Shown: positions 6,122 through 52,931 of the stretch, piece by piece
Position numbering within the stretch: the stretch's first letter is position 1
Layout of the letters: each line of letters starts with the position of its first letter
Assembly (NCBI GenBank): GCA_045613085.1
Contig: JAZLAG010000003.1
Span: forward strand, 48,696-112,695
Reading direction: 5' to 3'
Source: Acutalibacteraceae bacterium
GTDB taxonomy: Bacteria; Bacillota; Clostridia; Oscillospirales; Acutalibacteraceae
Length of the DNA: 64,000 bases
Position numbers and translations under genes: made by a program
The notes under the pieces: model-generated
Told to the model about the DNA's origin: nothing
Databases searched by the model: none
Seen by the model: the letters and a program-made list of their open reading frames with translations, nothing else

Positions 6122-6128
6122 TTCATTT

Positions 6129-10180: not shown

Positions 10181-10209
10181 ACCTTCTTGCCCCTTTCATT
10201 TATTATAAT

Positions 10210-10252
10210 GCCGACCGCAGGCCCTTAATTCCGAATTATGCATTCCGAATTA
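10210..10252. repeat. Degenerate relative of the dispersed element (GCCGACCgcagGCCC core + TTCCGAATT x2 tail)
   Basis: gccgaccgcaggcccttaattccgaattatgcattccgaatt lies between metY and metA. The architecture resembles copies 1 and 2 but with different tail words. Confidence 0.3.
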
Positions 10253-11530: not shown

Positions 11531-11566
11531 TTTAATATCTCCTTTCGAGCAACTTAAATTTAATAA

Positions 11567-12280: not shown

Positions 12281-12307
12281 CTCCTTTACTATAATTGCTG
12301 TTCTTCA

Positions 12308-36266: not shown

Positions 36267-36351
36267 GCGGGTATGGTGGAATTGGCAGACACGCAAGATT
36301 TAGGTTCTTGTGCCGAAAGGTGTACAGGTTCGACCCCTGCTACCCGCACCA
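36267..36351 (+). tRNA. tRNA-Leu (anticodon UAG)
   Basis: GCGGGTATGGTGGAATTGGCAGACACGCAAGATTTAGGTTCTTGTGCCGAAAGGTGTACAGGTTCGACCCCTGCTACCCGCACCA. Anticodon stem CAAGA/TCTTG, loop TTTAGGT, long variable arm, encoded CCA. Confidence 0.92.
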
Positions 36352-36390
36352 AACAACCTTGGTAGAATTACCAAGGTTGTTTTTTATTGT
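36352..36390 (+). terminator. Terminator of tRNA-Leu
   Basis: AACAACCTTGGTAgaatTACCAAGGTTGTT followed by ttttatt. Confidence 0.75.
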
Positions 36391-36467
36391 TCCACGCCTT
36401 TGGGAACAATAAAAAAACACCGCATCCATTTCGGTAGCGGTGTTTTGTCATAATTCTTATTTTACTG

Positions 36468-39371: not shown

Positions 39372-39513
39372 ATTTGAAGCCTCTTTTTTATTTTATATCA
39401 AATACAATTATATTATAACTTTTTTTATATAAAATTCAAGTAATTTTGAGTTTTTACACTTAAATTCGATATTTCAATTTAATTTTTTCTGATTTTATTC
39501 TAGTTTATTTAAT

Positions 39514-39544
39514 AAAAAAACGCAACTAAACAGTTGCGTTTTTC
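39514..39544 (-). terminator. Terminator of the ahpC / flavoprotein reductase operon
   Basis: Minus-strand AACGCAACTgtttAGTTGCGTT followed by tttttttatt. Confidence 0.65.
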
Positions 39545-39551
39545 TATATAT

Positions 39552-41201
39552 TCAATTACTAATCAATTCTAAAACCTGATTTATATTTTTCTTACCGAAA
39601 GATACTTTGTCATCATTAATAACAAGACACGGAACACTCATCACATTGTATTTTTTTCGTAATTCATCAAAATGCTGAATGTCGTAAACTTCGGCACGGA
39701 TATTTGGATTTAACGTTGCTATACGCTGACAAGCAATAACTAAATCAGGGCACATAGTACACGATAAAGTCACCAATATCTTCATATCTACAGTACTTTT
39801 TATTTCTTTAATTTCCTGAATAGTTTGTTCATCTGATTGTTGACCTGGTCCTGATGCATTATAAAGACTAATCACAAAGGTTGTGAACTCGTGACCGGAC
39901 GGAACACCATGAAACGCAATACCTGTATCACTACCATCTTCAAGAAAAACACGGACACATGGTGCTACATCTGATGAAGCATTTTTTTCAGCAACTATTA
40001 CTGTAATTTTATCTGTAAGAGCTGAGATATTTTCGATTAAACTTTCTAACTCACTTGAAACAGGACGATTATCTAAATAAAGCTTCAACACAAGATTACG
40101 CTCAAACTTACTGAAAATATCTAATAACTGTTGCTTTATTTCATCTGAAAAAGCATCGTTTGAATTATGAGAAATATTTTCTTCTGAAGCTTTTGATTTT
40201 TCAATAATTTTCGCTTTCGGTTGTTTCGGATACAGCCCTGTTTTTTGTTGCATTTCGGCAACGTATTTTTCAAGTTCGGTAGCAGCCAAAGCACCGTCAC
40301 CAGTAGCGGTTACAATCTGTCGGAGCGGTTTTATGCAGACATCTCCTGCAGCATAAATTCCGTCAACATTTGTTTTTTGCTCAGAGTCGGTAATAATATA
40401 TCCGTGCTCATTCAGTTCAATTATATCTTTTACAAGTTCTGTGTCAGGAGAATATCCTGCAAAAACAAACACACCGAAAAAGTCTCCGTTTTCAGCACGA
40501 TATTCTGAAATTTCACCTGTTTTTGTGTTTTTATAACGAATATAATTAAGCCCACTTTCACCTGAGACTTCTTCAACTACAGTATTTGGCACAACAGTTA
40601 TTTTCTCGTGATTTTTTGCCTTGTCTGCTACAGAAGCGGCACAACTGAAATCATCTTTTCTTATAAAAATTGTTACATGCTTTGCAAACTTAGTTAAAAA
40701 AACGCTTTCTTCGGCAGCAGCAAAACCGCCACCTATAACAAACACTTCTTTGTCGGTGAAAAATTCGCCATCACAAGTAGCACAATAAGCAACACCACGA
40801 CCTTTGTGCTCTTCTTCACCCTTAAAACCAACTGTTCTTGGGTGTGCACCAGTAGCAATCAAGACACCGAAACAATAAAAATCTCCGTGGTCGGTATGAA
40901 CCGTTTTAATTTCATTAGTAACACTGAACCCTTTAGCTTCTGCAATTAAACATTCTGCACCAAAGTTTTCAGCCTGATGACGCATTGTATCGGTAAGTGC
41001 TTTACCACTTGTTTTCTCTATACCAGGATAATTTACAACTTCGTTTGTAATAGTAATCTGACCGCCGAACTGCTCTTTTTCGAGCAATAATACTCTGTAT
41101 TTAGCACGGGCGAGATATAGAGCGGCGGTAAGTCCTGCGGGACCGCCACCAACTATTATTACATCATATAAATTATCCTTATTTATTTTTTGTAAATCCA
41201 T
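39552..41201 (-). CDS. Thioredoxin-reductase-like flavoprotein with C-terminal thioredoxin/glutaredoxin-like modules (AhpF-type function, inverted domain order)
   Basis: N-terminal DVIIVGGGPAGLTAALYLAR and redox CATCDG; C-terminal LVTLSCTMCPDLV CxxC fold. Its stop is adjacent to ahpC. Confidence 0.8.
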   Translation of the reverse strand: MDLQKINKDNLYDVIIVGGGPAGLTAALYLARAKYRVLLLEKEQFGGQITITNEVVNYPGIEKTSGKALTDTMRHQAENFGAECLIAEAKGFSVTNEIKTVHTDHGDFYCFGVLIATGAHPRTVGFKGEEEHKGRGVAYCATCDGEFFTDKEVFVIGGGFAAAEESVFLTKFAKHVTIFIRKDDFSCAASVADKAKNHEKITVVPNTVVEEVSGESGLNYIRYKNTKTGEISEYRAENGDFFGVFVFAGYSPDTELVKDIIELNEHGYIITDSEQKTNVDGIYAAGDVCIKPLRQIVTATGDGALAATELEKYVAEMQQKTGLYPKQPKAKIIEKSKASEENISHNSNDAFSDEIKQQLLDIFSKFERNLVLKLYLDNRPVSSELESLIENISALTDKITVIVAEKNASSDVAPCVRVFLEDGSDTGIAFHGVPSGHEFTTFVISLYNASGPGQQSDEQTIQEIKEIKSTVDMKILVTLSCTMCPDLVIACQRIATLNPNIRAEVYDIQHFDELRKKYNVMSVPCLVINDDKVSFGKKNINQVLELISN

Positions 41202-41764
41202 TATAACTGACCTACAAGGTCAAGACTTGGTTTAAGTGTTTCAGCACCTGGTTTCCAGTTAGCAGGACAAACCTCATCGCCGTGAGCGTGAACGAACTGA
41301 CAAGCCTGAACCTTACGGAAAAGTTCTTCTGCATTTCTACCCACGTTACCTGCAGTTATTTCGTAACCCACGATTTTACCTTCTGGGTTAATAATAAACG
41401 TACCACGCTCTGCTAAACCGTCAGATTCAATAAGAACTTCAAAATCTTCTGAAATTTCGTGTGTAGGGTCTGCAAGCATTGGGAAATTGATTTTTTTAAT
41501 TCTTTCAGAAGCATCGTGCCAAGCCTTGTGAACGAAGTGAGTATCAGTAGAAACTGAATATATTTCACAACCGACATTTCTGAATTCTTCATACTTGTTT
41601 GCTAAATCTTCAAGCTCAGTAGGACAAATAAAAGTGAAGTCTGCAGGATAGAAAAAGAAAACACTCCATTTGCCAAGAATATCATCTTTTGAGACTGTCT
41701 TAAATTCACCAGCGTGAAATGCATTGGCTTTAAAATTTGAAACTTCTTTATTAATAATTGACAT
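41201..41764 (-). CDS. ahpC: Peroxiredoxin, typical 2-Cys (AhpC)
   Basis: FFFYPADFTFICPTE peroxidatic Cys motif and C-terminal EVCPANW resolving Cys. I prefer the start at 41764 (aaggatgg RBS). Confidence 0.92.
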   Translation of the reverse strand: MSIINKEVSNFKANAFHAGEFKTVSKDDILGKWSVFFFYPADFTFICPTELEDLANKYEEFRNVGCEIYSVSTDTHFVHKAWHDASERIKKINFPMLADPTHEISEDFEVLIESDGLAERGTFIINPEGKIVGYEITAGNVGRNAEELFRKVQACQFVHAHGDEVCPANWKPGAETLKPSLDLVGQL

Positions 41765-41869
41765 AGTAAAAACCATCCTTTTTTTAATTTCTGTATTTAG
41801 TATGTCATTTTTTCTTAAATAAATACATTCTGTCTTGGTTATACTAAAAACAGATTGGAAGTGACGTTT

Positions 41870-43285
41870 ATGAAAACAATTTTAGAAAAGCCACATATAA
41901 AAGGTTTTATTCCTTTTGGTCTTGCTGCTTTTCTTGTAGGCTTAGTTGGTGGTTTCACCTCTTTACTCGGCCCTGCTTTTGTTGAAGAATTAAATCTCCC
42001 ATACAACAATACAACCTGGACAGCACTTGCTATGGCTATGTCAACCGCCGCATTTGCACCAATACTGGGTAAATTAGGCGATATAATAGGGCGAAGAGTA
42101 ACCTTATTAATAGGTATAGTTGTTTTTGCACTCGGTAATGTTCTCACCGCAATAGCACCTTCGCTTTTATTTATGCTTTTAGCACGTTTTATTGTTGGTA
42201 TGGGAACTGCCGCTATTGCACCTGTCGTAATGTCGTATATAGTCACAGAATTCCCAAGAGACAAAATCGCAAAAGGCTTTGCACTTTATATGTTTGTTTC
42301 GAGTATTTCTGTAATTTTCGGACCGACGCTTGGTGGCTTGATTATCGAATATTTTAACTGGCGCACAATGATTTGGGTGTGTGTCGTTATTTCGGTAATT
42401 ACATTTTTACTTTGCCTTATGATTGGTAATAAAAAGCCGACTGTAAAAAATGATATAAAGAATTTTGATAGTATAGGTGCTGTTTTTATATTAATCTTCT
42501 TTAGTCTACTGCTTTGTGTACCATCTTTTGGTCAGAATTTCGGTTGGCAATCAAAGCAATTTTTAATAGTTCTCATTGCTTCAATAATTTCAGGTATAGG
42601 ATTATGTATAGCAGAAAAAAGAGCGATAAATCCAATTATACAATGGCTTTTTATAAAGAGAAAAGCGTTCATACTTTCTGTTATTGCACTTTTTCTTACA
42701 CAAGGACTTATGCAAGCAAATATGACTAACGTTATTATTTTTGTAAACTACACTCAGCCACAGAATTCTGTTATATCTGGTTACGCAATCTCTATTATGT
42801 ATATAGGAATGTCTCTCGGAGCTGTAATTTTAGGACCACTTGCAGACCGATATGAACCTAAAAAAGTGCTTGCAGGTTCTCTTACTCTTACAGGAATAGG
42901 TAGTGCAATTATGCTACTGTTCACAGAAAATTCTTCAGTTCTTTTGCTTGCAGCTTCACTTGGGTTGCTCGGATTTGGGCTTGGTGGAAACGGTACAATC
43001 TTTATGAAAGTTGTGCTGTCCGGTGTACCACTTGAAAACTCAGGTGCAGGAACAGGAACTTACGGACTTTTCCGTGACCTTGCCGCACCATTTGGCGTTG
43101 CCGTGTTTGTACCGATGTTTACTAACAGAGCCTCTGCCCTTATAACTTCAGGGGCAACTGAAATTACTGCCGCTATTGACTCAGTAAAAACATTAGCTTT
43201 AGTTGAATTTGCGTGTATTGCAATTGGCATAATTACAGTACTTTTTCTTCCAAGAATTCACAATAAAGAAGGAGAAATTATATGA
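41870..43285 (+). CDS. MFS transporter, 14-TM DHA2-like
   Basis: Motif A-like LGKLGDIIGRR; about 14 hydrophobic segments. The ATG at 41870 follows ggaagtga. Confidence 0.82.
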   Translation: MKTILEKPHIKGFIPFGLAAFLVGLVGGFTSLLGPAFVEELNLPYNNTTWTALAMAMSTAAFAPILGKLGDIIGRRVTLLIGIVVFALGNVLTAIAPSLLFMLLARFIVGMGTAAIAPVVMSYIVTEFPRDKIAKGFALYMFVSSISVIFGPTLGGLIIEYFNWRTMIWVCVVISVITFLLCLMIGNKKPTVKNDIKNFDSIGAVFILIFFSLLLCVPSFGQNFGWQSKQFLIVLIASIISGIGLCIAEKRAINPIIQWLFIKRKAFILSVIALFLTQGLMQANMTNVIIFVNYTQPQNSVISGYAISIMYIGMSLGAVILGPLADRYEPKKVLAGSLTLTGIGSAIMLLFTENSSVLLLAASLGLLGFGLGGNGTIFMKVVLSGVPLENSGAGTGTYGLFRDLAAPFGVAVFVPMFTNRASALITSGATEITAAIDSVKTLALVEFACIAIGIITVLFLPRIHNKEGEII

Positions 43286-44079
43286 AATTAAAAGATAAAA
43301 TTATTTTGATAACCGCATCTACAAGAGGTATAGGCTTAGCTTGTGTTAAAGCGTGCGCCAAAGAAGGTGCTGTCGTTTATATGGCGGCAAGAAATTTAGA
43401 CCTTGCAAAAGAAGAAGCAGACAAACTCAATGCACAGGGGTATAGTGTTAAATATGTTTTTAATGATGCAAGTAAGCCTGAATCTTTTACTACAATGATA
43501 GAAGATGTTGTAAAAGATACTGGTCATATTGACGTTCTTGTAAACAATTTCGGAACATCAAAACCCGGTCAGGACCTTGATTTTTCAAACACCGATGTCA
43601 ATGTTTTCCTTGATACTGTCAACATCAATCTCAGGAGTGTTTTTGCCGCAAGTAAAGAAGCGGTAAAATATATGGCAAAGCAAGGTGGCGGAAGTATTAT
43701 TAACATTTCTTCTGTTGGTGGTCTTGTGCCTGATATTTCACAAGTATCATACGGCACAAGCAAGGCGGCAATAAATTACCTCACGAAACTTATTGCCGTA
43801 CACGAAGCAAGAAACAACATCCGTTGTAATGCGGTTCTTCCAGGAATGACCGCAACTGATGCAGTCGAGAAAAATCTTACCGGTGAATTCAGAGAGTTGT
43901 TTCTTCGCCACATACCATTTAACAGAATGGGTAAACCTGAAGAAATTGCTTCTGCAGTAGTTTATTTTGCAAGTGATGATTCACTCTACACCACTGGTCA
44001 GATATTAACCGTTTCTGGTGGATTTGGTCTTGCAACACCACTTTATGGTGATTTGGCGAACAAAACAAATCGCAGATAA
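43282..44079 (+). CDS. Short-chain dehydrogenase/reductase (SDR)
   Basis: TASTRGIG cofactor motif, NNFG, and catalytic YGTSK. ATGA overlap with the MFS gene. Confidence 0.9.
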   Translation: MKLKDKIILITASTRGIGLACVKACAKEGAVVYMAARNLDLAKEEADKLNAQGYSVKYVFNDASKPESFTTMIEDVVKDTGHIDVLVNNFGTSKPGQDLDFSNTDVNVFLDTVNINLRSVFAASKEAVKYMAKQGGGSIINISSVGGLVPDISQVSYGTSKAAINYLTKLIAVHEARNNIRCNAVLPGMTATDAVEKNLTGEFRELFLRHIPFNRMGKPEEIASAVVYFASDDSLYTTGQILTVSGGFGLATPLYGDLANKTNRR

Positions 44080-44110
44080 AATAAAAATACGGTTAAGTAT
44101 CTATATCCTC

Positions 44111-44139
44111 TTGACAATTCCGTTTTTATATACTATTAT
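44111..44139 (+). promoter_or_regulatory. Near-consensus sigma-70 promoter reading into structured element A
   Basis: TTGACA (44111-44116), exactly 17 nt, then TATTAT (44134-44139). No ORF follows; the next features are element A, the tRNA-Leu fragment and a terminator. Confidence 0.55.
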
Positions 44140-44189
44140 GCAGATATAGAAAAAGGCAAAACACGAAACCCCTTGATTCTATTGGGATT

Positions 44190-44465
44190 AGAGTGAGTGT
44201 GTTCGAACCAGATATGGTTTAATACAGTCACTTTCCCCTGTAACATCGTTAAAACTCTTGAAATACGGCAGTATTCCTACGAGTTTTGCCTTGTTACAGA
44301 AAAAACTGCCAAGTATTAAACTTCGCAGAACCTTAAATGTTCGAGTTTGCGTGCATTTTGGGTTTTCTTTGGCGTAGTTATACTGGCGTATATCAAGACA
44401 AAAAAACACAAAGGGTGCGTGAAATCGGACATTTAAGGCATATTTGGTTCAAATACACTCACTCT
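44190..44465 (+). ncRNA. Candidate structured RNA element, copy A (276 nt), unclassified
   Basis: AGAGTGAGTGT (44190-44200) pairs perfectly with ACACTCACTCT (44455-44465), extendable to about 20 bp. Two blocks are shared with copy B: 44241-44296 (51/56 identical) and 44364-44405 (40/42), at the same offsets. A promoter lies upstream and a terminator at 44546-44581. Confidence 0.5.
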
Positions 44466-44492
44466 TGAGCTTGTCCCCAAGGTGGCGTGACC

Positions 44493-44545
44493 TTTAGGTT
44501 CTTGTGCCGAAAGGTGTACAGGTTCAAGTCCTGCTACCCGCACCA
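44493..44545 (+). pseudogene. 3' half of tRNA-Leu(UAG), duplicated fragment (att-like scar)
   Basis: tttaggttcttgtgccgaaaggtgtacaggttcaagtcctgctacccgcacca matches 36299-36351 except for 3 T-loop positions. There is no 5' acceptor or D-arm. Confidence 0.85.
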
Positions 44546-44581
44546 AACAACTTTGGTAGAATTACCAAGGTTGTTTTTTTA
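44546..44581 (+). terminator. Duplicate of the tRNA-Leu terminator
   Basis: aaacaactttggtagaattaccaaggttgttttttt; one substitution relative to 36352-36388. Confidence 0.7.
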
Positions 44582-44678
44582 TTATCTTACTTAGAAACAT
44601 ACCCAAGGACTTGAACCTGCTCTCACCGAAGGTGAACAAAATCGTTGCCGTTCTGACGGCAAAGCGTAGCGAGCGCCG

Positions 44679-44700
44679 TCGAGTCCTGTCAGGTGTACCA
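44679..44700 (+). pseudogene. Second, unrelated tRNA-like 3'-end fragment
   Basis: tcgagtcctgtcaggtgtacca resembles T-loop/T-stem/acceptor/ACCA. There is no matching 5' half; an inverted ggacttgaacc T-arm-like piece lies at 44608-44618. Confidence 0.4.
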
Positions 44701-44741
44701 AACCAGGTGTTCATTCAAATACTGAATGAACACCTGGTTTT
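44700..44741. terminator. Strong hairpin/terminator
   Basis: AAACCAGGTGTTCATTCaaatactGAATGAACACCTGGTTT followed by t; a 17-bp stem. Confidence 0.7.
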
Positions 44742-44809: not shown

Positions 44810-46465
44810 TCATTGTTTTTTATTTTTAGCTATACACTTGCTATAATTACAATCTTTACTTTCAATTACTTCAATCGGAAACTCTTTATTAATGCAAAAT
44901 GTAATTTTTTCTAAACTATTTTCGTTTGATTTTTTTAATTTTAACCCTCTGTATAATAAAGTATATATAGCAACGACACGATCAGATAATTCATATTTAT
45001 CAATTGTTGTACTTACTGTATCATATGTACATATCACATCCGTTACAACAATTATGTTTTTATCTTTGGGTAACACTTGCTCTATATCATTCGTAGAATT
45101 TTTATCTTCAGATTTCGCTGGGATAACATATTGAAACGGAAGATTGAGTTTCATAGCCAAAAGAGCTGCTAATATTGAACCTTCTAAATCCAAGCCAATA
45201 ATTATAGCGTTCTCATTAAAGCTTTTTTTTGTGCAATGTTCAGCGAATTTTTCTATACATATATCACAAATTTTTTCAGTTTCAATTATTTCATTTGTGT
45301 CAATCCAATCGCGAGAACAATATTTGCTATTTATTTTATAATGACCACCATCTAACAAATTTTTGTTTTCAATATATTCTTTCAAAATATTACTTGTATG
45401 TTCATGTAAAACATCTGGATACTCATATTCCATAGATTCTATTAATTCTGTTTTAACTATGGCTTTATCTTCAGCATTGATAATTGTGCTTAATTCCTTA
45501 AGATTATTAAAGGAAGATATTGGATCCAACATACTATTTATTTCTCTATTAACAATTTCATTACCAGATACGATTTTAATCTTATCGCTACGAAAACCAA
45601 TTTTTGAATTTTCTGGTTTATTGAAGACAAGATTTAATGCAGTTGTTAACTCTTTTAATATTTTGCTTCGCACTTCCATTATCTCACAAACAATATTTGA
45701 AATATCATCATTATTTAAATTTATATATTCATCATCGCAATATATTTCTATTTGTGATAAATCATTTTCAGTATAATCCATCATACTGAAATAATGTAAT
45801 CGTTTCCAGTGTTTAATCGATATTCGTTCCTTTTCATTTTCTACTGAAAGTTGATCTGCAAATAGTTCAGTTCCTAATCGGTCTGAAGTGATATCAAACT
45901 CATCTGCTAATCTTAAAATTGCAGCAATTGCTTTCCCGTTAATTCCCCCACTCATTCTGAATAATAATTCAGGATTTTTTATTCCGTTTTTTTCGTCTTC
46001 AACAGAACCATCTTTTATATCACTGTGTGCTGTAATAATTTTCCTAATAACACTTATATCGTTATGTGTAATATTATTTCTTTGTTTTTCTTGAGCTAGT
46101 GGCGATGATTGATTATTCTCTTCATCCTTTACATAATCTGCAGACTCTTTAGAATGTGTATTTCTATTCCAATTTTTATTTACTGCCATAGATATATCAT
46201 GAAACAGAACCGATAAATGTAAAACATAGAGTTCTTTAGATGTAAACATATTTGAATCAGCGTGTAACAATATTATTTCACTTATAATTCTGAATATATC
46301 GTTGCAGTGCTTATCGAAATCATGAGCAGTGTACAAAACTTCACCTATAGGGCACCCCCTGTTTAGGAGTTCCCCGTAATGCTCAGCCAATCTATCAAAA
46401 GATTCCTGATGTTCTTTTTCCATCAATATATAACATTGGTATTGTGTATAATCCTTTTTAATCAT
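44810..46465 (-). CDS. HD-domain phosphohydrolase fused to a type I phosphoribosyltransferase (PRTase)-fold domain; gene 3 of the candidate system
   Basis: 551 aa. HD elements: FDKHCNDIF, LFHDIS (46190-46207), TAHSD, RLADEFD. C-terminal PRTase signatures: IIIGLDLEGSILAALLA and PRPP-loop-like NIIVVTDVICTYDTV (45014-45058). GGAGGAG RBS; 8-nt overlap with the upstream gene. Confidence 0.65.
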   Translation of the reverse strand: MIKKDYTQYQCYILMEKEHQESFDRLAEHYGELLNRGCPIGEVLYTAHDFDKHCNDIFRIISEIILLHADSNMFTSKELYVLHLSVLFHDISMAVNKNWNRNTHSKESADYVKDEENNQSSPLAQEKQRNNITHNDISVIRKIITAHSDIKDGSVEDEKNGIKNPELLFRMSGGINGKAIAAILRLADEFDITSDRLGTELFADQLSVENEKERISIKHWKRLHYFSMMDYTENDLSQIEIYCDDEYINLNNDDISNIVCEIMEVRSKILKELTTALNLVFNKPENSKIGFRSDKIKIVSGNEIVNREINSMLDPISSFNNLKELSTIINAEDKAIVKTELIESMEYEYPDVLHEHTSNILKEYIENKNLLDGGHYKINSKYCSRDWIDTNEIIETEKICDICIEKFAEHCTKKSFNENAIIIGLDLEGSILAALLAMKLNLPFQYVIPAKSEDKNSTNDIEQVLPKDKNIIVVTDVICTYDTVSTTIDKYELSDRVVAIYTLLYRGLKLKKSNENSLEKITFCINKEFPIEVIESKDCNYSKCIAKNKKQ

Positions 46466-47459
46466 TTGCTCCTCCTAAATCATCACTAAAGCCAGAAATT
46501 ATGTAATCTATGTTCTGTTCTTTTGTATTAACAAGTGAGATAATTTTATTTAAAATAGATTCAGCGTATTTATCTGAAGTTGTATTTATATACGAAGCTA
46601 CAGAAATACCTCCGATAAGGTTTGCTCCAGCAAGAGTTATAATGGTATTTAAAGTTTTAATTTCGGTACCAAGGCATACAAAATCGCTCACAACATAATA
46701 CGACTTATCTCTTCTAATCTTATTAAATATATTTGATATTGAGGTGTTTTTTGGCCCCAAACCTAGACAATGAACAACTTTTTTGTTTAGTAATTTCCCT
46801 ACTAAAGTTGCGATAATACCACCCGTTTTACTTGTGCTAATAAGAGCATCAATTTTATCAATACCAAAATCATAAATATGTTTAGCAAGTTCATATATTA
46901 TAAACATATAAGAATTAAAACCGTAAAAAATTCTATTGATATGGGTGTATGTTGAACTATATATACCAGATGAATCAAGAAATTTGATACCGCCAGTTTC
47001 TATTACATTATTTAATTGTAATATCTCCATAATATGCATTGAATATATTTTTCTATAGTCCAATTTCTCAACAATCTTCAAATCGTTTATATTTTTACCA
47101 TAAACATCATTTTCATTTTGCAACCCATTAATGCTTTCAATTATTCTTTCTCCTATTAATAAATCATTTCCAACATTAACAAAAAAAAGATTATCTATAA
47201 ACTTACTATTATTATAATTTTCGAAAGCTCTATTACAAAACACTATATTCTTAAAATCTAAGATTATTTTAGAAGTTTTGTTTTTAGAATAAAGTGTTTC
47301 AATATAAATTTTCAGTTCATTGATAAATTGATCTGATAATGCAATATCTCTTTCATATTGTGGCATCTTTGTACTATTCTTAAAAACAAAAATAAAAGTA
47401 TTATATGCAAGAGGAATTAAATACATTTCATCATTCTTTATACAATAAAAATCAAACAT
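46458..47459 (-). CDS. PRTase-fold protein with N-terminal alpha/beta (possibly STAS-like) module; gene 2 of the candidate system
   Basis: 333 aa. ALISTSKTGGIIATLVGKLL and PRPP-loop-like YYVVSDFVCLGTEI (46659-46700); FLDSSGIYS at 46956-46982. GAGGAGG RBS; 8-nt overlaps on both sides. Confidence 0.6.
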   Translation of the reverse strand: MFDFYCIKNDEMYLIPLAYNTFIFVFKNSTKMPQYERDIALSDQFINELKIYIETLYSKNKTSKIILDFKNIVFCNRAFENYNNSKFIDNLFFVNVGNDLLIGERIIESINGLQNENDVYGKNINDLKIVEKLDYRKIYSMHIMEILQLNNVIETGGIKFLDSSGIYSSTYTHINRIFYGFNSYMFIIYELAKHIYDFGIDKIDALISTSKTGGIIATLVGKLLNKKVVHCLGLGPKNTSISNIFNKIRRDKSYYVVSDFVCLGTEIKTLNTIITLAGANLIGGISVASYINTTSDKYAESILNKIISLVNTKEQNIDYIISGFSDDLGGAND

Positions 47460-48411
47460 TTCTATTTACCTCCTCTTTACTCAATGGTATTTCTATTTCA
47501 ATATGAACACCTGAAAACTTCAAATTTCTTCGAATATTATTTTTATAATTTTCTGAAAATAACAATGCTCTCATATTTAAATCTGTATTTGACAATTCAA
47601 ATGGGATAATCATATTTTGAGTTAAAATAAGTTGATCTTTGTTAGAGTGTATTCTAACAACACCGCCTAAAGATATTGTTTTTTTTATTACACTATATAA
47701 ACCAAAAGGTTTTTCGTATCTTAAAAAAACACCTTTTATTATAGCGTCTAATTCATTTTCTACTACGCTTCCTTTACTTTTAAAAGAATTTAAAAATCCT
47801 CTACCACAATCAGAATATGATATATACACCTTTTCTCTGGAATAATTATACTGTATTGTCATAAAGCAAAAACTATCTCCATGTTTCTTAGAATTCTCTA
47901 TTATTTCATGAGACAATTCTAATATTAAGTTTGCTGGAACAACATAAGAATTGTATTTTTCTAGAAATTTATTAGTAAAACCACGCGAGTAACGGCATAG
48001 TTTGTTCCACGATTCTTGTTCCGTTTCATTTTTATTAAAAAAAACTGTAGTGTTAAGTTTATCCATATTACTCTCAGACATACCAGCCCATATTGAATCA
48101 TCAAAAGAAAAACAACCATATTTTTGTGCGAAATTTATAAATTGTATATCATACAAATATCTCTTTAATTTCCCAGCAGAAATGTTATTGGGAATAAATA
48201 CTTTAGGCGCAGCTCCAGTTGATTCTGAAACAATATAACCTACACAAAGCAAATTAGGAATTACCGAAGGATCAATACTTTTTACCTCTGAAAAATCGAA
48301 TATTAACTGTTTGTTTTTTCCTTCAATGTAATAATTATGCAATTTTCCTAATACCTCATTATAGAATACGTATGAAGTCAAATTTCCATCCAAATGTATT
48401 ATATATTGCAT
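47452..48411 (-). CDS. STAS-like domain fused to a GHKL (RsbW/SpoIIAB-like) ATPase/kinase domain; gene 1 of the candidate system
   Basis: 319 aa. N-half LIFDFSEVKSIDPSVIPNLL (48247-48306). C-half N-box ELSHEIIENSKKHG (47878-47919), G1 DCGRG (47797-47811), G2-like FGLYSV...GGVVRIHS. GGAGG RBS. Confidence 0.6.
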   Translation of the reverse strand: MQYIIHLDGNLTSYVFYNEVLGKLHNYYIEGKNKQLIFDFSEVKSIDPSVIPNLLCVGYIVSESTGAAPKVFIPNNISAGKLKRYLYDIQFINFAQKYGCFSFDDSIWAGMSESNMDKLNTTVFFNKNETEQESWNKLCRYSRGFTNKFLEKYNSYVVPANLILELSHEIIENSKKHGDSFCFMTIQYNYSREKVYISYSDCGRGFLNSFKSKGSVVENELDAIIKGVFLRYEKPFGLYSVIKKTISLGGVVRIHSNKDQLILTQNMIIPFELSNTDLNMRALLFSENYKNNIRRNLKFSGVHIEIEIPLSKEEVNRNV

Positions 48412-48612
48412 TCCTTAGCCTCCTAAATTACTCTTTTATGTTAAAAATAAACTTAAAAACATTAGGTCCTAAATCAACTTTATGTAATGTTTCTCCACCT
48501 AACAGTTTTGGTTTTAAACTAATTTATATACATTATAGTATCAACTTAATTCTATCTTTAAAGAATACTTCTATTTTCTCATTCTTTCAATTAAATTCAC
48601 AAAAATGCTTTC

Positions 48613-48642
48613 ATTTTCGACAAAAACGCTATATTTTCGACA
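48613..48642 (-). promoter_or_regulatory. Direct repeat TGTCGAAAAT x2 (20-nt phasing) upstream of the three-gene operon; possible operator
   Basis: attttcgaca occurs at 48613-48622 and 48633-48642. A TATAAT hexamer (reverse complement of 48532-48537) and TTGATA (48539-48544) lie downstream in the minus sense. Confidence 0.3.
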
Positions 48643-48651
48643 TTTATAAAT

Positions 48652-48698
48652 CAAAAAACAACCCACATCATAGTTATAATTAACTACGATGTGGGTTG
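48652..48698 (-). terminator. Terminator of the flavodoxin-like gene; insulates the three-gene operon
   Basis: Minus-strand CAACCCACATCgtagttaattataactatGATGTGGGTTG followed by ttttttgattt. Confidence 0.75.
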
Positions 48699-49260: not shown

Positions 49261-49773
49261 TCACTCCCACAATCCTGAAGTTGATTTACCACTTTTACCT
49301 GTAATGCCTACGACTCTTGGCCATTGGTTAGTCTCAATTATTGTAGTTGCATTTATATTACCTAAATGTGCATAGAAATGACGGAACTGCGACATTATCA
49401 AGCCAAGTCGGTTTTGCTTACAACCGGTTGGTATCTCATACAACATTTCATCGTCAAGGCTATTCAAATAATCTGTGATTTTTGCTTTTATGCTTTGCAA
49501 ATACTCCTGTAACTGCTCTTTTGACAATGTTTCTTCACTTGCAATATCAAGAGAGTTTAAATTCTCCGTATGAAATGGCGGATGCGCATATTCTTTAGGA
49601 TTTATGTACCATTGGTCTAAACTGTGTAGCATATGATAACAATGTTTCCAAATAGGCATATCGCAGAGAATGTAGTCCATATTACAGGTCTGAAGCATTA
49701 TATCAGCATTAGTGAAAATTGTTTCGGTATTCAGTTTGATTGCATTTACTAAGTCTTTTGCCATAAGCAACAC
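49261..49773 (-). CDS. DinB-superfamily-like helical protein
   Basis: 170 aa with spaced His residues (WKHCYHMLHSLDQW ... FRHFYAHLGN) typical of the DinB/YfiT fold. Confidence 0.5.
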   Translation of the reverse strand: MLLMAKDLVNAIKLNTETIFTNADIMLQTCNMDYILCDMPIWKHCYHMLHSLDQWYINPKEYAHPPFHTENLNSLDIASEETLSKEQLQEYLQSIKAKITDYLNSLDDEMLYEIPTGCKQNRLGLIMSQFRHFYAHLGNINATTIIETNQWPRVVGITGKSGKSTSGLWE

Positions 49774-49932: not shown

Positions 49933-50577
49933 TTATATACAACTAAGAAAATGATCAAACATTTTTTTAATCTGTTCAATCAATTCATATTGTCCAATCT
50001 TAATGTCCTTATCATTTTCTTTAAAAGTATATGAATAAAATTCAGGGTTAGTTTGATTGTTATTTAAATCCGTTTCAATGTGTGAAAAATCACTGACTGA
50101 ATGTTTATAAGAATTAGATATCTCATTTAAGTTGTCTATAAAGTTATAAAATGAATCAAGTTCATCTATAACTTTATATTTAGTTTGTCGTTTAAGATAT
50201 TTTCCAATCGAATCAATTTCTTTAGTTTTATCGTTAATATTATTAACTCCAACTTTATTAATCCACAAACCATAAATCATTTGATCAACTGTTTTTCGTG
50301 CATGATATATTATATCTTCAACAATAATAAAATCTTTTAATTTTGCTGAATAGTATGATTTTTCATCATTAGACAATGATTGGTAACAATTTTTAAAACT
50401 AGAATATGATGCACATAATAATTCAATATGATTAATTCTAACTACTATATCATTACATATCATAATTAGCATTAGTTTATTTTTGTCATAAAGTCTTTGA
50501 AAATGTGTTTTGTACTCCTTAGAAGTTATAAAATCCTTATTGCTTAAGTAATCGTTATGTATTGCTTTTCTTATCAT
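49933..50577 (-). CDS. Hypothetical protein (214 aa), very AT-rich, no recognisable domain
   Basis: The ATG at 50577 is preceded by AAGGAG, 2 nt after the APH stop. The sequence is Lys/Asn/Ile-rich and probably helical. Confidence 0.55.
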   Translation of the reverse strand: MIRKAIHNDYLSNKDFITSKEYKTHFQRLYDKNKLMLIMICNDIVVRINHIELLCASYSSFKNCYQSLSNDEKSYYSAKLKDFIIVEDIIYHARKTVDQMIYGLWINKVGVNNINDKTKEIDSIGKYLKRQTKYKVIDELDSFYNFIDNLNEISNSYKHSVSDFSHIETDLNNNQTNPEFYSYTFKENDKDIKIGQYELIEQIKKMFDHFLSCI

Positions 50578-50579
50578 AA

Positions 50580-51449
50580 TTATACTCCTTTTATATACCA
50601 AGTTGGCACAGGGTTCTGCATATTGTCGTACCAATCAAGCACATCCTTTGCTTGATTCAGCATTGTCTGAATTTCGCCATCACCGAAAGGAATTGCCCAC
50701 GGGATTGATGAAAGCATATTACTGCTGATGTAAAGTGCGAGGAGTTTCCAAAAATCCATAGGTACTTGCATTTCAAAATAGCCATTAACGATACCTGATG
50801 CAAAAAGCGGAGCAGACTGTGCACACCATACAATGCGATTGAATTCTTCCCACGGATCACCGAAATCATATCGGTCAAAATCAATAATAACGATTTTGCC
50901 ATTTTCAATCATCATATTACCGATATGATAATCTCCGTGCTGATAAGTTTGAGGTCTGTTTTTCAGCAAATGTCGGTTAGCTTCTATGTAATCAATTATA
51001 TATTCAGCACCATTAAATTTCACAGGACAGTCATTATACATCTGTATTTTTCTGTCCATCTTCCTATTGAATCGCTCTTCCCAATCTGGTTGGTCTGCAG
51101 GTGCTGGTATTGAGTGAATTTTCTTTAAAATTCTGCCTGCTTCAAGTCCGAGTGCATACTGTTCAGAGTCTGCAAGATATGGAACAACCTCATTTGCATC
51201 TTTGCCATCAATCCAAGTCTGCAATGTATAAACACCCTCGTCACACTTGCCAAAGTCAACAGGCTTACACATAGGCACACCAAGCTTTTCAACTTGCTTT
51301 TGCATAATGTACATATTCTCACGGTTTGCACTCTTTTCAAAAGGTGTAACACGTAAAAGATATTTTGTACCGTCAGCAGTTGTGACACAATATTTCTTGT
51401 CACCCGACCAACCTTTGTTTATGGATTTTTTTGTTATAAAATCAATCAT
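50580..51449 (-). CDS. Aminoglycoside/antibiotic phosphotransferase (APH) family kinase
   Basis: Brenner motif HGDYHIGNMM and metal-binding IIDFDRYDFGDPWEEF. Confidence 0.85.
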   Translation of the reverse strand: MIDFITKKSINKGWSGDKKYCVTTADGTKYLLRVTPFEKSANRENMYIMQKQVEKLGVPMCKPVDFGKCDEGVYTLQTWIDGKDANEVVPYLADSEQYALGLEAGRILKKIHSIPAPADQPDWEERFNRKMDRKIQMYNDCPVKFNGAEYIIDYIEANRHLLKNRPQTYQHGDYHIGNMMIENGKIVIIDFDRYDFGDPWEEFNRIVWCAQSAPLFASGIVNGYFEMQVPMDFWKLLALYISSNMLSSIPWAIPFGDGEIQTMLNQAKDVLDWYDNMQNPVPTWYIKGV

Positions 51450-51951
51450 TGTAATATCCTTTTTCTTTGAACCAGTTAGTGTATCTTCTTTTTTGTGTAT
51501 CTATCATTTTATCGGAATTAACAAACTCAATAAATTCATTTTCGCTAACCCATTTGAAAGATATTGTTTCACCTTTTTGGAGTTTTACATTATTTTTATC
51601 ACAATTTGTAGTGCATAAGAAACAATGAAATAAACATTTATCATCATCGAAAGTATAATAAGCAAACTCTTTAAAATCGTTGCAAACTATCCCCGTTTCT
51701 TCAAACAATTCACGCTTTATGCAATCGATTTCATTTTCGCCTTTAAGAGCAGAACCACCTGCTGTTGCTTCGTAAAAACCTGGGTAAATATCTTTCTTCA
51801 AATCTCGTTGCATTAGAAGATAATCACCATCTGTATGACGAACAAGCACTTCGCAAACAAGGTGATAAATTCCATCTGGAATAGGTTTACCACGGACTAA
51901 ATCTATATTTGCTAAAGTTCCATCTTTATGATATCCATCCCAAATTTCCAT
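51442..51951 (-). CDS. NUDIX hydrolase
   Basis: Nudix box GGSALKGENEIDCIKRELFEETGI. The start at 51951 follows an AAGAGGTG RBS. Confidence 0.85.
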   Translation of the reverse strand: MEIWDGYHKDGTLANIDLVRGKPIPDGIYHLVCEVLVRHTDGDYLLMQRDLKKDIYPGFYEATAGGSALKGENEIDCIKRELFEETGIVCNDFKEFAYYTFDDDKCLFHCFLCTTNCDKNNVKLQKGETISFKWVSENEFIEFVNSDKMIDTQKRRYTNWFKEKGYYND

Positions 51952-51953
51952 AA

Positions 51954-52931
51954 CTACACCTCTTTGCACATAGTAATCTCTGCTTCAGACTTATCCACAA
52001 TTCTAAACCCACATTTACTATAAAGTCCTATTGCTACCAAATTATCTTTCGTTGTATGTAATTTCACTTGTTTGTATCCACGTTGTTTCAGATATTGAAT
52101 TGCAAATTCTACTGCAAATTTTCCAACACCTTGATGTTTGAATTCATTTGACACAACAAGCATTGAAATCCAGGCAACCTCTTTATTTTGCAATCCGTTC
52201 AACTTCAACCAAGCACATGGTATATCATTTTTACAAACAATAAAATTTTCTTCGTCAGAAGCTTGTGGTTCTGTAAATGCTTTTTGCCATTCTTCCAATG
52301 AAATAATTTCTGTATGCAAAGCAGAAAGATTATTTTCTTCAGACATAAGATTGTATATGAAGTTAACATCTTTTTCTGTAAATGGTCGTACAGCATATTG
52401 ATTCTGCAAGTCAATTTCAAATCGCAATGAAGTTTTACCATCATCACAGAATTTTTCTTTTAGTTTGCCGCCATTTTTCAATATCGTTTTAATTGCACCA
52501 TGGTTATTTTCATAAGGAACGATTTCTACACTTTTGAATTCAGTATCTCTACAAATATCTAAAGCAAGACGCAACATAATTGTTCCTAAACCTTTGCTTC
52601 TATGCCAAGGAGCAAGCCCTGAATGAAGATGTCCTCTGTGAGTATTTGAACTATTTATAACTATAGCACCAAATATCTCTTTATTATCATCTACAAGAAA
52701 ATACAGTGTACACGGAACTCCTGTGGAAAGCATTGAGCCTGTTATTCGGTCATCCTCACACCATTCCAACCATTTTGAATACGAAACATTTTCTCCCAAT
52801 AATTTACTATATCTGCGTAACAACTGAGGTTGAATGTTATCTTCAATGGACTCCCATTTATCCATCATTTCTGTGTACTGCTTTTCATAAGTTTCGTCTG
52901 GTATAACAAGTTTATAATTTTTAATATCCAT
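51954..52931 (-). CDS. Tandem-domain GNAT N-acetyltransferase
   Basis: Two acetyl-CoA motifs: HRSKGLGTIMLRLAL and FKHQGVGKFAVEFAI. Confidence 0.85.
   Translation of the reverse strand: MDIKNYKLVIPDETYEKQYTEMMDKWESIEDNIQPQLLRRYSKLLGENVSYSKWLEWCEDDRITGSMLSTGVPCTLYFLVDDNKEIFGAIVINSSNTHRGHLHSGLAPWHRSKGLGTIMLRLALDICRDTEFKSVEIVPYENNHGAIKTILKNGGKLKEKFCDDGKTSLRFEIDLQNQYAVRPFTEKDVNFIYNLMSEENNLSALHTEIISLEEWQKAFTEPQASDEENFIVCKNDIPCAWLKLNGLQNKEVAWISMLVVSNEFKHQGVGKFAVEFAIQYLKQRGYKQVKLHTTKDNLVAIGLYSKCGFRIVDKSEAEITMCKEV

Follow-up and report, generated by a model that had tools for sequence, protein, structure and literature searches.

A rare, mobile three-gene cassette encoding STAS-GHKL, PRTase-fold and HD-CE-PRTase proteins as a candidate anti-phage or toxin system

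Three overlapping genes in a 64,000-nucleotide stretch of an Acutalibacteraceae contig (the window) encode a STAS-GHKL protein (P1), a PRTase-fold protein (P2) and an HD-CE-PRTase protein (P3), and this trio is best read, with moderate confidence, as a single horizontally mobile conflict module, either anti-phage defence or toxin-antitoxin-like. It forms a rare, mobile and fast-evolving cassette, a candidate anti-phage or toxin system. What the sequences show directly are the ORFs, their folds and conserved residues, and, for the trio as a whole, its synteny and co-evolution, its mobility and neighbours, and the swapping of its effector. A conflict system had been proposed in the initial annotation from the window alone; comparative evidence (synteny, co-evolution, mobile and defence neighbours elsewhere, and effector swapping) strengthened that proposal, whereas the window copy itself is not within a recognisable defence island. 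The features of the operon and its flanks are as follows:

44493..44579, plus strand: partial duplicate of the 3′ half of tRNA-Leu(tag) and its terminator, 95% identical to 36299-36385
44700..44741, strand not assigned: strong hairpin 3′ of P3, -32.5 kcal/mol
44810..46465, minus strand: P3 ORF, 551 aa, predicted effector
46458..46476, minus strand: P2/P3 junction, Shine-Dalgarno AGGAGG (46471-46476) and 8-nt start/stop overlap ATGATTAA (46458-46465)
46458..47459, minus strand: P2 ORF, 333 aa, predicted adaptor/regulator
47452..47475, minus strand: P1/P2 junction, Shine-Dalgarno GAGGAGG (47469-47475) and 8-nt start/stop overlap ATGTTTGA (47452-47459)
47452..48411, minus strand: P1 ORF, 319 aa, predicted sensor/switch
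48419..48424, minus strand: Shine-Dalgarno AGGAGG of the P1 start codon, read from the sequence
48659..48698, minus strand: intrinsic terminator of the upstream FMN-reductase gene, 18-pair stem and U-run, -28.8 kcal/mol

Translational coupling, flanking terminators and low GC mark P1-P2-P3 as a real operon. The overlapping ORFs, the GGAGG-type Shine-Dalgarno sequence ahead of each start, the upstream terminator and downstream hairpins, and the low GC were all as initially annotated; GC was 27.5% in the operon against 35.2% in the window, and GC3 was 18-20% in the trio against 25-29% in neighbouring genes. The hairpin at 44700-44741 is likely the (bidirectional) operon terminator, and the FMN-reductase terminator insulates the trio, so that its promoter must sit within 48425-48658. 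Homologues were found for all three proteins (77, 36 and 18 clusters for P1, P2 and P3, respectively) and their gene order is kept in other genomes; thus, the ORFs are not chance. The trio begins ∼230 nt to the right of one of two tRNA 3′-fragment scars claimed earlier. That at 44493-44579 stood up as a copy of the 3′ half of tRNA-Leu(tag), intact at 36267-36351; the repeat occurs twice in the window (none expected by chance), and this copy is the att-type scar at the right-hand boundary of an 8.2-kb insertion. The other (∼44612-44700) was recognised by neither ARAGORN nor Rfam.

The domains of the three proteins, all on the minus strand, were assigned as follows:

48037..48411, minus strand: P1 STAS-like N-terminal domain, aa 1-125
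47455..48024, minus strand: P1 GHKL ATPase/kinase C-terminal domain, aa ∼130-319
47010..47459, minus strand: P2 alpha/beta N-domain, no family assignment, aa 1-150
46461..47009, minus strand: P2 OPRTase-like type I PRTase fold, aa 151-333
45767..46333, minus strand: P3 HD-CE phosphohydrolase domain, aa 45-233, Pfam HD-CE 1.1e-20
44918..45292, minus strand: P3 OPRTase-like PRTase domain, Pfam aa 392-516, Pribosyltran 1.8e-6 (beginning at aa ∼364 if the hood region is counted)

P1 is, as modelled by AF2 (pLDDT 93.8, pTM 0.92), the predicted fusion of a STAS domain and a Bergerat-fold (GHKL) ATPase with an intact ATP site, in agreement with the initial reading. Foldseek matched it to SpoIIAA (1th8_B, prob 1.0) and SpoIIAB (1l0o_A, prob 0.98), as well as to histidine kinases and Topo VI-B; at E 0.01 the family profile aligned with the histidine-kinase N-box and G1 motifs, and N173, H177, D201, G203, G205 and G237 are invariant. 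Classical partner switching, which had been invoked for this protein, is not supported: no conserved phospho-acceptor Ser/Thr was present in either the P1 STAS domain, where 21 of 35 sequences carry Leu at the canonical phospho-Ser position, or the P2 N-domain, and the operon includes no sigma factor. A VapS-type phospho-switch for P2 is thus unsupported. The P2 N-domain is also not demonstrably STAS by profile comparison with that of P1 (hhalign E 0.011, prob 4%).

The PRTase fold proposed for the C-terminal half of P2 (AF2 pLDDT 85.9) was borne out by Foldseek matches to an OPRTase (4ohc, E 5.6e-8) and to APRTs, and by NCBIfam pyrE_Therm (1.5e-6). This half is related to the PRTase domain of P3 (hhalign E 7e-6), whose family profile matched the OPRTase domain of UMP synthase at 2.9e-6; both domains are closest to orotate PRTases, and the only Pfam family matched by either was Pribosyltran. 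The earlier reading of PRTase folds in P2 and P3 held. Both PRPP loops keep one acid and lack the first of the canonical DD pair, making catalysis by the PRTase domains uncertain. D476 and T483 of P3 are at least 90% conserved. The HD-plus-PRTase composition of P3 was likewise upheld, and by its Pfam match (74.9 bits; cutoff 27) the HD domain is assigned to the already defined HD-CE (conflict effector) family; H48, H53, H89, D90, H147, D188, E189 and D191, including the H...HD...H...D ligands, are invariant. P3 matched neither Pfam PF01966 nor the PADLOC dGTPase models, the latter ruling out the dGTPase/SAMHD1 type to which the HD domain had been likened.

Members of the P1 family are few and patchily distributed, with 133 clusters at E<=1e-30 among 1.84 billion representatives. 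The trio is syntenic in 23 non-redundant loci of Clostridia and Bacteroidales; of the 32 genome loci, 15 kept both order and strand, as did further loci from metagenomes and one from IMG/VR, with Bacteroidales accounting for two loci of conserved order. Distance matrices of P1, P2 and P3 correlate (rho 0.78-0.82), and mean identity between loci is just 26-29% for the trio versus 63% for a linked gene encoding the thymidylate synthase ThyX. Coordinated fast divergence is typical of immune genes. A housekeeping operon for pyrimidine/thymidylate salvage and its regulation would suit the OPRTase-like domains of P2 and P3, the link to ThyX and an HD nucleotidase; however, the rarity and patchiness of the family, the low operon GC, the divergence of the trio relative to ThyX, flanking genes that differ in every lineage, the degenerate PRPP loops, and an apparent transfer of the trio into Bacteroidales along with ThyX make this extremely unlikely.

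Many copies of the trio have mobile genes next to them, and several have immune genes as neighbours. Four integrases and four Mob_Pre relaxases, as well as IS66 and IS110, were found near its loci, and one copy lies at a prophage end (L033). GajA/GajB (Gabija) and a Schlafen-like protein are immediately upstream in L002, a CBASS TIR-STING operon is near the trio in L048/49, HsdR in the P0250 locus and a Dam methyltransferase in L011, and a dCTP deaminase, a defence dGTPase and an OLD-like ATPase apparently lie beside the copy attributed to L039. The proximity of Gabija, CBASS, dCTP deaminase/dGTPase and RM genes is suggestive of defence islands, which had been named as a check on the proposal; the window copy departs from this pattern, with no recognised defence neighbour, integrase or mobile-element gene alongside it in the 64 kb, and with a NUDIX protein as the sole neighbour matching a candidate family, PDC-S07. 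The mobile genes, together with a small, translationally coupled, low-GC cassette and a toxin-like effector with a putative neutralising partner, would also befit an addiction (toxin-antitoxin) system serving mobile-element stability or inter-element competition, with no dedicated anti-phage role. Such a system is improbable here: the window copy has no remaining mobile-element genes alongside it, the suggested defence islands point elsewhere, and VapKSC and ShosTA, which are TA-type systems of this logic, nevertheless defend against phage.

Several copies lie inside or adjoin polysaccharide loci (L004/L045-47, L035/36, L041-43, L039 and L033), a setting that is compatible with another chemistry and counts against the conflict reading. 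In PRPP-dependent glycan modification, ribofuranose-5-phosphate would be added to a surface polysaccharide and the 5-phosphate then removed, as by the PRTase-like CriT, whose PRPP site likewise has a non-canonical acid arrangement, and the phosphatase CrpP (PMC10299916); either phosphatase head described below would suit. This is nonetheless a slim prospect, as many loci have no glycan genes, e.g., the window, L002 (Gabija), L037 (Agr/T7SS) and L048 (CBASS), and the trio in L045 breaks an otherwise contiguous CapD-PglD-PglC-type block, into which it looks like an insertion. Additionally, the best structural hits are to nucleobase PRTases, which have a base-binding hood, rather than to CriT, and glycan assembly has no use for a STAS-GHKL switch, ThyX or an HD-CE-family protein.

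Three features that were invisible in the window alter the mechanistic picture of a conflict module: the ThyX partner, calcineurin-like effector variants and radical-SAM fusions. A ThyX gene adjoins the trio in 13 of the 23 loci (none at the window copy), with 4-nt ATGA overlaps in L011 and L016 and an alternative gene order in L051, and P3 carries a fused radical-SAM domain in L006 and L007. In L048/L049 and the P0250 locus, a Metallophos (calcineurin-like) head replaces the HD head, with the P3-type PRTase domain (E 3e-28), P1 and P2 all still present. One possibility is a nucleotide-synthesising immune module, in which PRTase, HD and ThyX/radical-SAM make a modified pyrimidine nucleotide (an antiviral analogue or signal, viperin/Ophion-like); production would be under the control of P1, with ThyX either feeding the affected thymidylate step or bypassing it. 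We give this reading a fairly low probability. The ThyX and radical-SAM associations and the orotate PRTase-like domains are consistent with it, as is Ophion (rSAM, PHP and PRTase), a validated defence system with proposed nucleotide modification (bioRxiv 2025.09.30.679545). However, the window copy and ∼10 other loci keep the trio with neither ThyX nor rSAM, the PRPP loops are degenerate, and the swap of HD for Metallophos better suits a generic phosphoesterase effector than a dedicated biosynthetic step. The linked ThyX, moreover, has the look of an ordinary thymidylate synthase under strong conservation (match to M. tuberculosis ThyX at 1e-23; signature RHRxxSxxQES present). Its congruence with the trio is weak (between L002 and L015, ThyX is 90% identical and P3 24%), so that its role may be indirect.

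For the preferred reading, a conflict module, we infer the trigger, substrate, phenotype and mechanism steps with VapKSC as the analogue. P3 would be the effector, its HD-CE phosphohydrolase, with intact catalytic residues and joined to an OPRTase-like domain, being predicted to attack free nucleotides. P2 would act as an adaptor that holds, inhibits or completes P3; type I PRTases function as dimers, and the PRTase-like domain of P2 thus probably pairs with that of P3. P1 would be the sensor/switch, phosphorylating or remodelling P2 or P3 upon a cue of infection or damage and so freeing their activity, and the predicted outcome is collapse or corruption of the nucleotide pool followed by growth arrest. 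A canonical ThyX accompanies the module in over half of the related loci, suggesting that the pyrimidine/thymidylate branch is the pool concerned; ThyX may serve as a metabolic buffer or bypass.

As the initial annotation had it, the trio was not recognised as a named defence system, PADLOC v2 detecting none of P1, P2 and P3; its models presumably cover ShosT and retron effectors, to which P2 and P3 were unmatched. No experiment on the architecture of STAS-GHKL protein, PRTase adaptor and HD-CE-PRTase was found in the literature. Nicastro, Burroughs, Iyer and Aravind (NAR, 2023; cited in PMC12871103) reportedly predicted that HD-CE, Calcineurin-CE and PRTase-CE degrade nucleotides at phosphate or glycosidic bonds, and are said to have built on the functional equivalence of HD and calcineurin-like effectors; the trio resembles these families in its clear Pfam HD-CE member and its HD to calcineurin-like swap. 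Its predicted outcome is shared with dGTPase/SAMHD1-type and PUA-Cal-HAD systems, in which a phosphoesterase collapses nucleotide pools, whereas its regulator would be a STAS-GHKL switch where those systems have allosteric dNTP sites or a PUA sensor, respectively. SpoIIAA/SpoIIAB and RsbV/RsbW have the fold of both halves of P1, fused there into one chain; the trio differs from them in the missing sigma factor and the Leu that is frequent at the phospho-Ser position.

PRTase-fold toxins or effectors in small defence operons are also known from ShosTA, an established PRTase toxin system (PMC11961720), PsyrTA, type III-A3 retrons and Ophion, in which a PRTase occurs together with rSAM and a phosphoesterase. 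ShosT, like P3, joins a phosphohydrolase and a PRTase in one chain; however, its hydrolase is a Rossmann-type PPase rather than an HD domain, and it requires the DD pair D331/D332, of which P2 and P3 each retain one acid. A STAS-GHKL protein is found in none of these four, nor is a pair of PRTase proteins, and the trio has no DprA-like antitoxin, reverse transcriptase or ncRNA. A tested parallel in organisation is VapKSC (STAS-GHKL kinase, STAS adaptor and toxin), which protects against phage (Chambers et al., EMBO J 2026, PMC13373217). VapKSC and CapK/CapS share the three-gene order of STAS-GHKL protein, adaptor and toxin, and VapK and CapK resemble P1 in the STAS and GHKL fusion, the intact ATP site, the SpoIIAA/SpoIIAB-like fold and a STAS domain of their own with no phospho-acceptor (PMC13373217); VapKSC and the trio both occur near other immune genes. 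In contrast, P1 has no HTH domain, P2 is a 333-aa protein with a PRTase-fold C-terminal half instead of a small STAS protein, and P3 is an HD-CE-PRTase or Metallophos-PRTase instead of a PIN nuclease. With no conserved Ser/Thr in P2 and the first acid missing from both PRPP loops, the trio is thus an analogue, not a member, of the VapKSC family.

The three genes of the trio were recovered exactly where the initial annotation had placed them, in the order P1 (predicted sensor), P2 (predicted adaptor), and P3 (predicted effector):

47452-48411, minus strand: P1, 319 aa
46458-47459, minus strand: P2, 333 aa
44810-46465, minus strand: P3, 551 aa

The genes are joined by the proposed 8-nt start/stop overlaps, which read ATGTTTGA and ATGATTAA at the two junctions on the minus strand, and a Shine-Dalgarno sequence of the AGGAGG type precedes every one of the three starts. 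The hairpins described on either side were also found, specifically an insulating upstream hairpin at 48659-48698 (18 bp, -28.8 kcal/mol, with a U-run) that terminates an FMN-reductase gene, and a downstream hairpin at 44700-44741 (-32.5 kcal/mol) after P3. The operon has a GC content of 27.5%, against 35.2% for the window, and its GC3 is 18-20%, against 25-29% for neighboring genes. A promoter scan of the trio locus performed no better than on shuffled sequence, and therefore no promoter is named; Rfam gave chance-level matches only across the same locus, with no retron ncRNA, no sigma-factor gene was found in or beside the operon, and neither thyX nor a thyX remnant was found in the window.

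The co-occurrence that the initial annotation had anticipated was borne out in relatives, where the three genes keep the same order and strand. In a one-genome-per-species scan, 32 loci with a P3 relative were obtained, and 15 of these, including two from Bacteroidales MAGs, carry a tightly packed trio with this shared order and strand; at the remaining genome loci the HD-CE domain characteristic of P3 lies inside unrelated proteins of ~900 aa. Genome loci, metagenome contigs, and one IMG/VR contig together yielded 23 non-redundant HD-type trios, and the order P1-P2-P3 is kept in all trio loci. The pairwise-identity matrices of the three proteins are correlated (rho 0.78-0.82) at a mean identity of 26-29%, showing that they co-diversify quickly, and P1-P2-P3 thus form one unit. 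The P1 family is rare, with 133 clusters at 50% identity (E<=1e-30) among 1.84 billion representatives, and none of the three proteins bears a name in public sources.

P1 has no match in Pfam, NCBIfam, or PADLOC, and a single-sequence PDB search with it returned nothing useful; nevertheless, its reading as a STAS domain fused to a GHKL domain is upheld by fold matches and invariant ATP-site residues. In an AlphaFold (AF2) model built from a 35-member family alignment (pLDDT 93.8, pTM 0.92), the N-half resembles SpoIIAA-type STAS domains (Foldseek 1th8_B, prob 1.0), and the C-half resembles the GHKL domains of SpoIIAB, histidine kinases, and Topo VI-B (Foldseek). The N-box and G1 of the family profile align to histidine kinases (E 0.01) and also to anti-sigma F, and N173, H177, D201, G203, G205, and G237 are 100% conserved in the family alignment. 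The canonical acceptor position of the STAS domain is occupied by Leu in 21 of the 35 sequences. As a separate observation, Foldseek matched the P1 model to an unnamed viral protein of 233 aa (BFVD J7KH07; E 2.4e-8, TM 0.68 target-normalised) that could be a phage-encoded STAS/GHKL-like protein; a viral DUF4325 (STAS-like) protein was also matched weakly.

The two-part reading of P2, an N-terminal alpha/beta module followed by a type I PRTase fold, likewise stands. Its C-half (aa ~151-333) adopts an OPRTase/APRT fold that includes a hood of the OPRTase type (Foldseek 4ohc, E 5.6e-8), and the protein matches NCBIfam pyrE at 1.5e-6. The alpha/beta N-half (~150 aa) was considered as a possible STAS domain and rejected, the hhalign comparison with the P1 STAS domain being not significant (E 0.011, prob 4%). 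No Ser/Thr column within aa 1-150 is conserved at >=85%, and P2 has invariant Ser/Thr residues in just two places, S163/S164 of the hood hairpin and S208/S210 of the PPi loop. Pfam detected no HTH domain in P1 or P2, and at E<=1 neither P2 nor P3 was matched by PADLOC.

Pfam and the family profile agree with the proposal that P3 combines an HD domain with a second PRTase fold. Residues 45-233 match Pfam HD-CE (74.9 bits, cutoff 27, E 1.1e-20), a domain (PF24391) present in 77 of 77 P3 homologs, and across 70 sequences there is no variation at the HD ligands H48, H53, H89, D90, H147, D188, E189, and D191. The "CE" stands for conflict effector, and the family was reportedly defined by Nicastro and colleagues in 2023 as a predicted nucleotide-targeting effector; literature searches under the family name returned unrelated papers only. 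The C-half of P3 matches Pribosyltran (PF00156; 27.8 bits, cutoff 26.3, 1.8e-6) and is OPRTase-like, with a family profile that matches OPRT domains at 2.9e-6, and the PRTase halves of P3 and P2 are themselves related (hhalign E 7e-6). HD-CE was also seen at the N-terminus of large proteins of ~700-980 aa (L020-L023, L025, and L027-L032, at ~10001-12600 in most; L008 5457-8399) in Flavobacteriia, other Bacteroidota, Cloacimonadota, Cyanobacteria, and Clostridia; none of these loci has P1 or P2, and the large proteins are separate, uncharacterised HD-CE architectures.

For the PPi and 5'-phosphate loops of the two PRTase domains, P2 shows S208-T-S210-K-T-G213 and G264-T-E, which are invariant or nearly so, and P3 shows G424-x-D426-x-x-G429 and T480-x-x-T483. 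Their sequences are compatible with PRPP or nucleotide binding, which does not in itself prove catalysis. In the PRPP loop of P2, D259 occurs in 17 of the 17 sequences that are not gapped there, after a C, F, S, or L at position 258; in that of P3, T475 (57/70 sequences) is followed by D476 (68/70). Both loops therefore keep the second acid only and lack the DD/ED pair, of which the DD form is used by catalytic PRTases, including the ShosT toxin (PMC11961720). For this reason the PRTase domains may serve as altered catalysts, nucleotide/PRPP sensors, or a scaffold.

The architecture of P3 varies among relatives. At L013-L015 the protein is split, with the HD and PRTase parts encoded by separate ORFs, and at L006 (6524-9013) and L007 (3129-5564), where ThyX is absent, P3 homologs of 811-829 aa have at their C-terminus a radical-SAM-like domain that contains the motif CxxxCxxC (Pfam Radical_SAM 1.2e-5, under the curated cutoff). 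At L048/L049 and the P0250 locus, which are distant loci of the P1 family, a calcineurin-like (Metallophos) head takes the place of HD in the product of the third gene; the L048 version retains a PRTase domain of the P3 type (E 3e-28) and follows P1-like and P2-like genes:

L048 7001-11658 (the same as L049): P1-like, 417 aa; P2-like, 333 aa; Metallophos-PRTase, 604 aa; unknown, 195 aa

Since the HD head is replaced and the rest retained, P1, P2, and the P3-type PRTase domain are the constant parts, and the catalytic head of P3 is exchangeable.

Of the 23 non-redundant loci, 13 have a canonical ThyX gene beside the trio, with two gene orders and two phyla represented; in 12 lineages it immediately follows P3 and shares its strand.

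Positions of ThyX relative to the trio
Downstream of P3: L002, L005, L009, L011, L013-L016, L018, L035/36, L041-43, L044
Upstream of P1: L051, 561-1181

The linked proteins (207-215 aa) carry the RHRxxSxxQES signature and match Pfam Thy1 (2e-50) and M. tuberculosis ThyX (1e-23); the gap between P3 and ThyX is mostly <=90 nt, with ATGA overlaps in L011 and L016. Their mean identity of 63% is far above that of P1-P3, and congruence with the trio is weak (rho 0.28-0.44), such that ThyX of L002 and L015 are 90% identical whereas the P3 proteins share just 24%. No conserved accessory gene was found beyond ThyX, only lineage-specific genes, for example a 137-aa ORF in L001, L009, and L010. The ThyX linkage and the OPRTase-like character of the PRTase domains point to the pyrimidine/thymidylate branch; a literature search combining ThyX with anti-phage defense found nothing relevant. 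An immune module that synthesizes a modified nucleotide would account for ThyX and the radical-SAM domain and has a precedent in Ophion (bioRxiv 2025.09.30.679545), but loci without either gene exist and the linked ThyX looks ordinary, and we regard this explanation as unlikely.

The genomic context of the window copy is unremarkable. Its neighbors encode an FMN reductase, APH, NUDIX, GNAT, and LytTR proteins, and the sole PADLOC match among them is that of a NUDIX protein to the candidate family PDC-S07 (2.8e-10):

36267-36385: intact tRNA-Leu(tag) plus terminator, part of which is duplicated 8.2 kb downstream at 44493-44579
49261-49773, minus strand: 170-aa ORF, no Pfam or PADLOC match
49933-50634, minus strand: 233-aa ORF, 24% GC, no Pfam or PADLOC match
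51442-51969, minus strand: NUDIX protein matching PDC-S07, within a run of APH, NUDIX, and GNAT genes

The 170- and 233-aa ORFs sit just upstream of the terminator that insulates the trio, and the latter, AT-rich like the trio, may be foreign as well. Of the two tRNA 3'-fragment scars reported next to the operon, the one at 44493-44579 was confirmed as a 95% copy of 36299-36385 (the tRNA-Leu(tag) 3' half plus terminator), but the second "tRNA-like" fragment, at 44612-44700 and ending in ...GTCGAGTCCTGTCAGGTGTACCA, was recognized by neither ARAGORN nor Rfam. The 8.2 kb between the two copies (36386-44492) encode an EAL/GGDEF sensor protein, AhpF/AhpC, an MFS transporter, and an SDR, contain no integrase, and look like a decayed tRNA-targeted island. 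The trio starts ~230 nt past the right-hand copy, and no third tRNA-Leu fragment able to delimit an island around it was found.

A setting among defense or mobile-element genes, as would suit a conflict effector, is not recognizable for the window copy but is seen in several relatives, specifically L002, L033, L039, L048/49, the loci with integrases, and the P0250 locus.

Contexts of the trio and its variants in relatives
L002: GajA, GajB, Schlafen/AlbA_2 protein, then P1-P2-P3-ThyX
L011: Dam methyltransferase directly upstream
L033: end of a prophage tail/lysis block
L037: Agr/T7SS region
L039: apparently dCTP deaminase, dGTPase, OLD-like ATPase, and SMEK_N around the trio
L048/49: adjoining CBASS CD-NTase plus TIR-STING operon
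P0250 locus: adjoining HsdR
L004/L045-47, L035/36, L041-43: polysaccharide contexts

When 223 flanking ORFs from 21 loci were pooled (sets of 148 and 75), defense genes included GajA (3e-162), GajB (2.5e-94), type I and II methyltransferases, and AbiD, together with the PADLOC candidates PDC-S15 and PDC-M10B and the nucleotide-depletion defenses dCTP deaminase (7.8e-134), dGTPase (6.9e-39), and an OLD/AriA-like ATPase. At L039, the region directly upstream of the trio (1239-6125) holds genes for a 578-aa kinase plus deaminase protein, to which the dCTPase match is attributed, a 470-aa HD protein, to which the dGTPase match is attributed, and a 280-aa radical-SAM protein whose gene overlaps that of the HD protein; the HD and radical-SAM pair may be a separate system. 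Mobile-element genes among the same 223 ORFs were, in raw counts, Phage_integrase (four), Mob_Pre (four), AAA_25 (four), DnaB_C (three), IS66, and TnpV. That the trio serves such elements as an addiction module nevertheless seems to us distinctly improbable. A phage or plasmid origin was rejected, the module being essentially absent from these collections: tblastn of INPHARED with P3 and blastn of a plasmid collection gave no match, and IMG/VR held one trio locus among 2.9 million contigs.

Two further explanations bear on these flanks. PRPP-dependent glycan ribofuranosylation is real chemistry (PMC10299916), and some trio loci lie inside glycan clusters; many others lie outside them (among these the window, L002, L037, and L048/49), however, and neither the STAS-GHKL protein nor ThyX nor membership of HD-CE fits this chemistry, which leaves it very unlikely. 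Housekeeping pyrimidine salvage is hardly credible, for the trio is rare and low in GC, diverges rapidly, and has variable flanks. In L045 (7710-14012; the same as L004, L046, and L047), the trio and ORFs of 137 and 221 aa interrupt what would otherwise seem a contiguous glycan operon of CapD/PglF-type, PglD, and PglC-type (Bac_transf) genes, which suggests insertion of a five-gene cassette into a polysaccharide locus.

The best-supported reading of the trio is a sensor-adaptor-effector conflict module. P1 would be the sensor, by analogy with the architecture of CapK and VapK, and P3, with its intact HD site, is the predicted nucleotide-targeting effector. Type I PRTases act as dimers, and because the PRTase domains of P2 and P3 are related, we infer a P2-P3 heterodimer in which P2 would be the adaptor, pairing with P3 through these domains; more speculatively, ThyX might buffer or bypass self-damage. 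A more specific version, which we hold tentatively as possible if doubtful, is a hitherto uncharacterised immune family in which a STAS-GHKL sensor gates a heterodimeric P2-P3 PRTase scaffold with interchangeable phosphoesterase/radical-SAM heads and acts specifically on the pyrimidine/thymidylate pool, the co-transferred ThyX being a built-in metabolic antidote or bypass. ThyX would then be equivalent to a type IV antitoxin: phage DNA synthesis would be starved or poisoned, but the host would live through this or recover.

The trio is a well-supported, testable candidate conflict module, with a predicted function. If validated, it would represent a new nucleotide-targeting immune family from gut Clostridia and Bacteroidales, groups from which, to our knowledge, few defense systems have so far been tested. 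It would also extend the newly discovered STAS-GHKL kinase gating of CapK and VapK to metabolic effectors, provide a concrete case of PRTase-fold domains as a constant scaffold or sensor beneath swappable phosphoesterase heads, and explain a recurrent, hitherto unreported linkage between a defense-like cassette and thymidylate synthase; through that linkage, it becomes testable whether immune systems bring their own metabolic antidote to self-inflicted nucleotide damage.

Among known systems, the closest likeness is to VapKSC and CapKS, in which the STAS-GHKL kinases VapK and CapK phosphorylate a STAS adaptor upon ssDNA, leading to toxin release or de-repression of an immune operon (PMC13373217). 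P1 too is a fused STAS and GHKL protein with an intact ATP-binding site, and the kinase, adaptor, toxin order of VapKSC is matched by P1-P2-P3. P2, however, has no STAS domain bearing an absolutely conserved Ser/Thr phospho-acceptor, and the effector is an HD-CE-PRTase or Metallophos-PRTase protein, not a PIN (VapC) nuclease or STAS-wHTH repressor. Because the P2 N-domain lacks a conserved Ser/Thr, the P1 STAS acceptor is mostly Leu, and the PRPP loops keep the second acid only, the trio is not assigned to the VapKSC family, and the resemblance would be a functional analogy short of membership. In contrast to SpoIIAB/SpoIIAA and RsbW/RsbV, P1 has its STAS and kinase domains in one chain in place of a separate phospho-Ser antagonist, and there is no sigma factor. 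ShosTA, PsyrTA, and retrons differ in that the trio has no PADLOC match, DprA-like antitoxin, or RT plus ncRNA. The trio phosphatase is HD or Metallophos, not HAD as in CriT/CrpP, glycan genes flank some loci only, and the closest structures to the P2 PRTase are nucleobase PRTases. The dGTPase/SAMHD1 type that had been invoked for P3 was rejected, since PADLOC, including its dGTPase models, gave no match and Pfam assigns HD-CE, not PF01966. The initial annotation had recognized no named defense system, and PADLOC on the three proteins agreed; nor was a matching system found in PADLOC v2, or any matching system or experimental work on this architecture in the searchable literature. The parts are of known kinds, namely HD-CE effectors, STAS-GHKL gating, and PRTase toxins; what is new, within PADLOC v2 and the searchable literature and with a prior computational listing in Nicastro et al. 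2023 possible, is their combination, a two-PRTase scaffold with exchangeable HD, calcineurin-like, and radical-SAM heads and a frequent ThyX partner.
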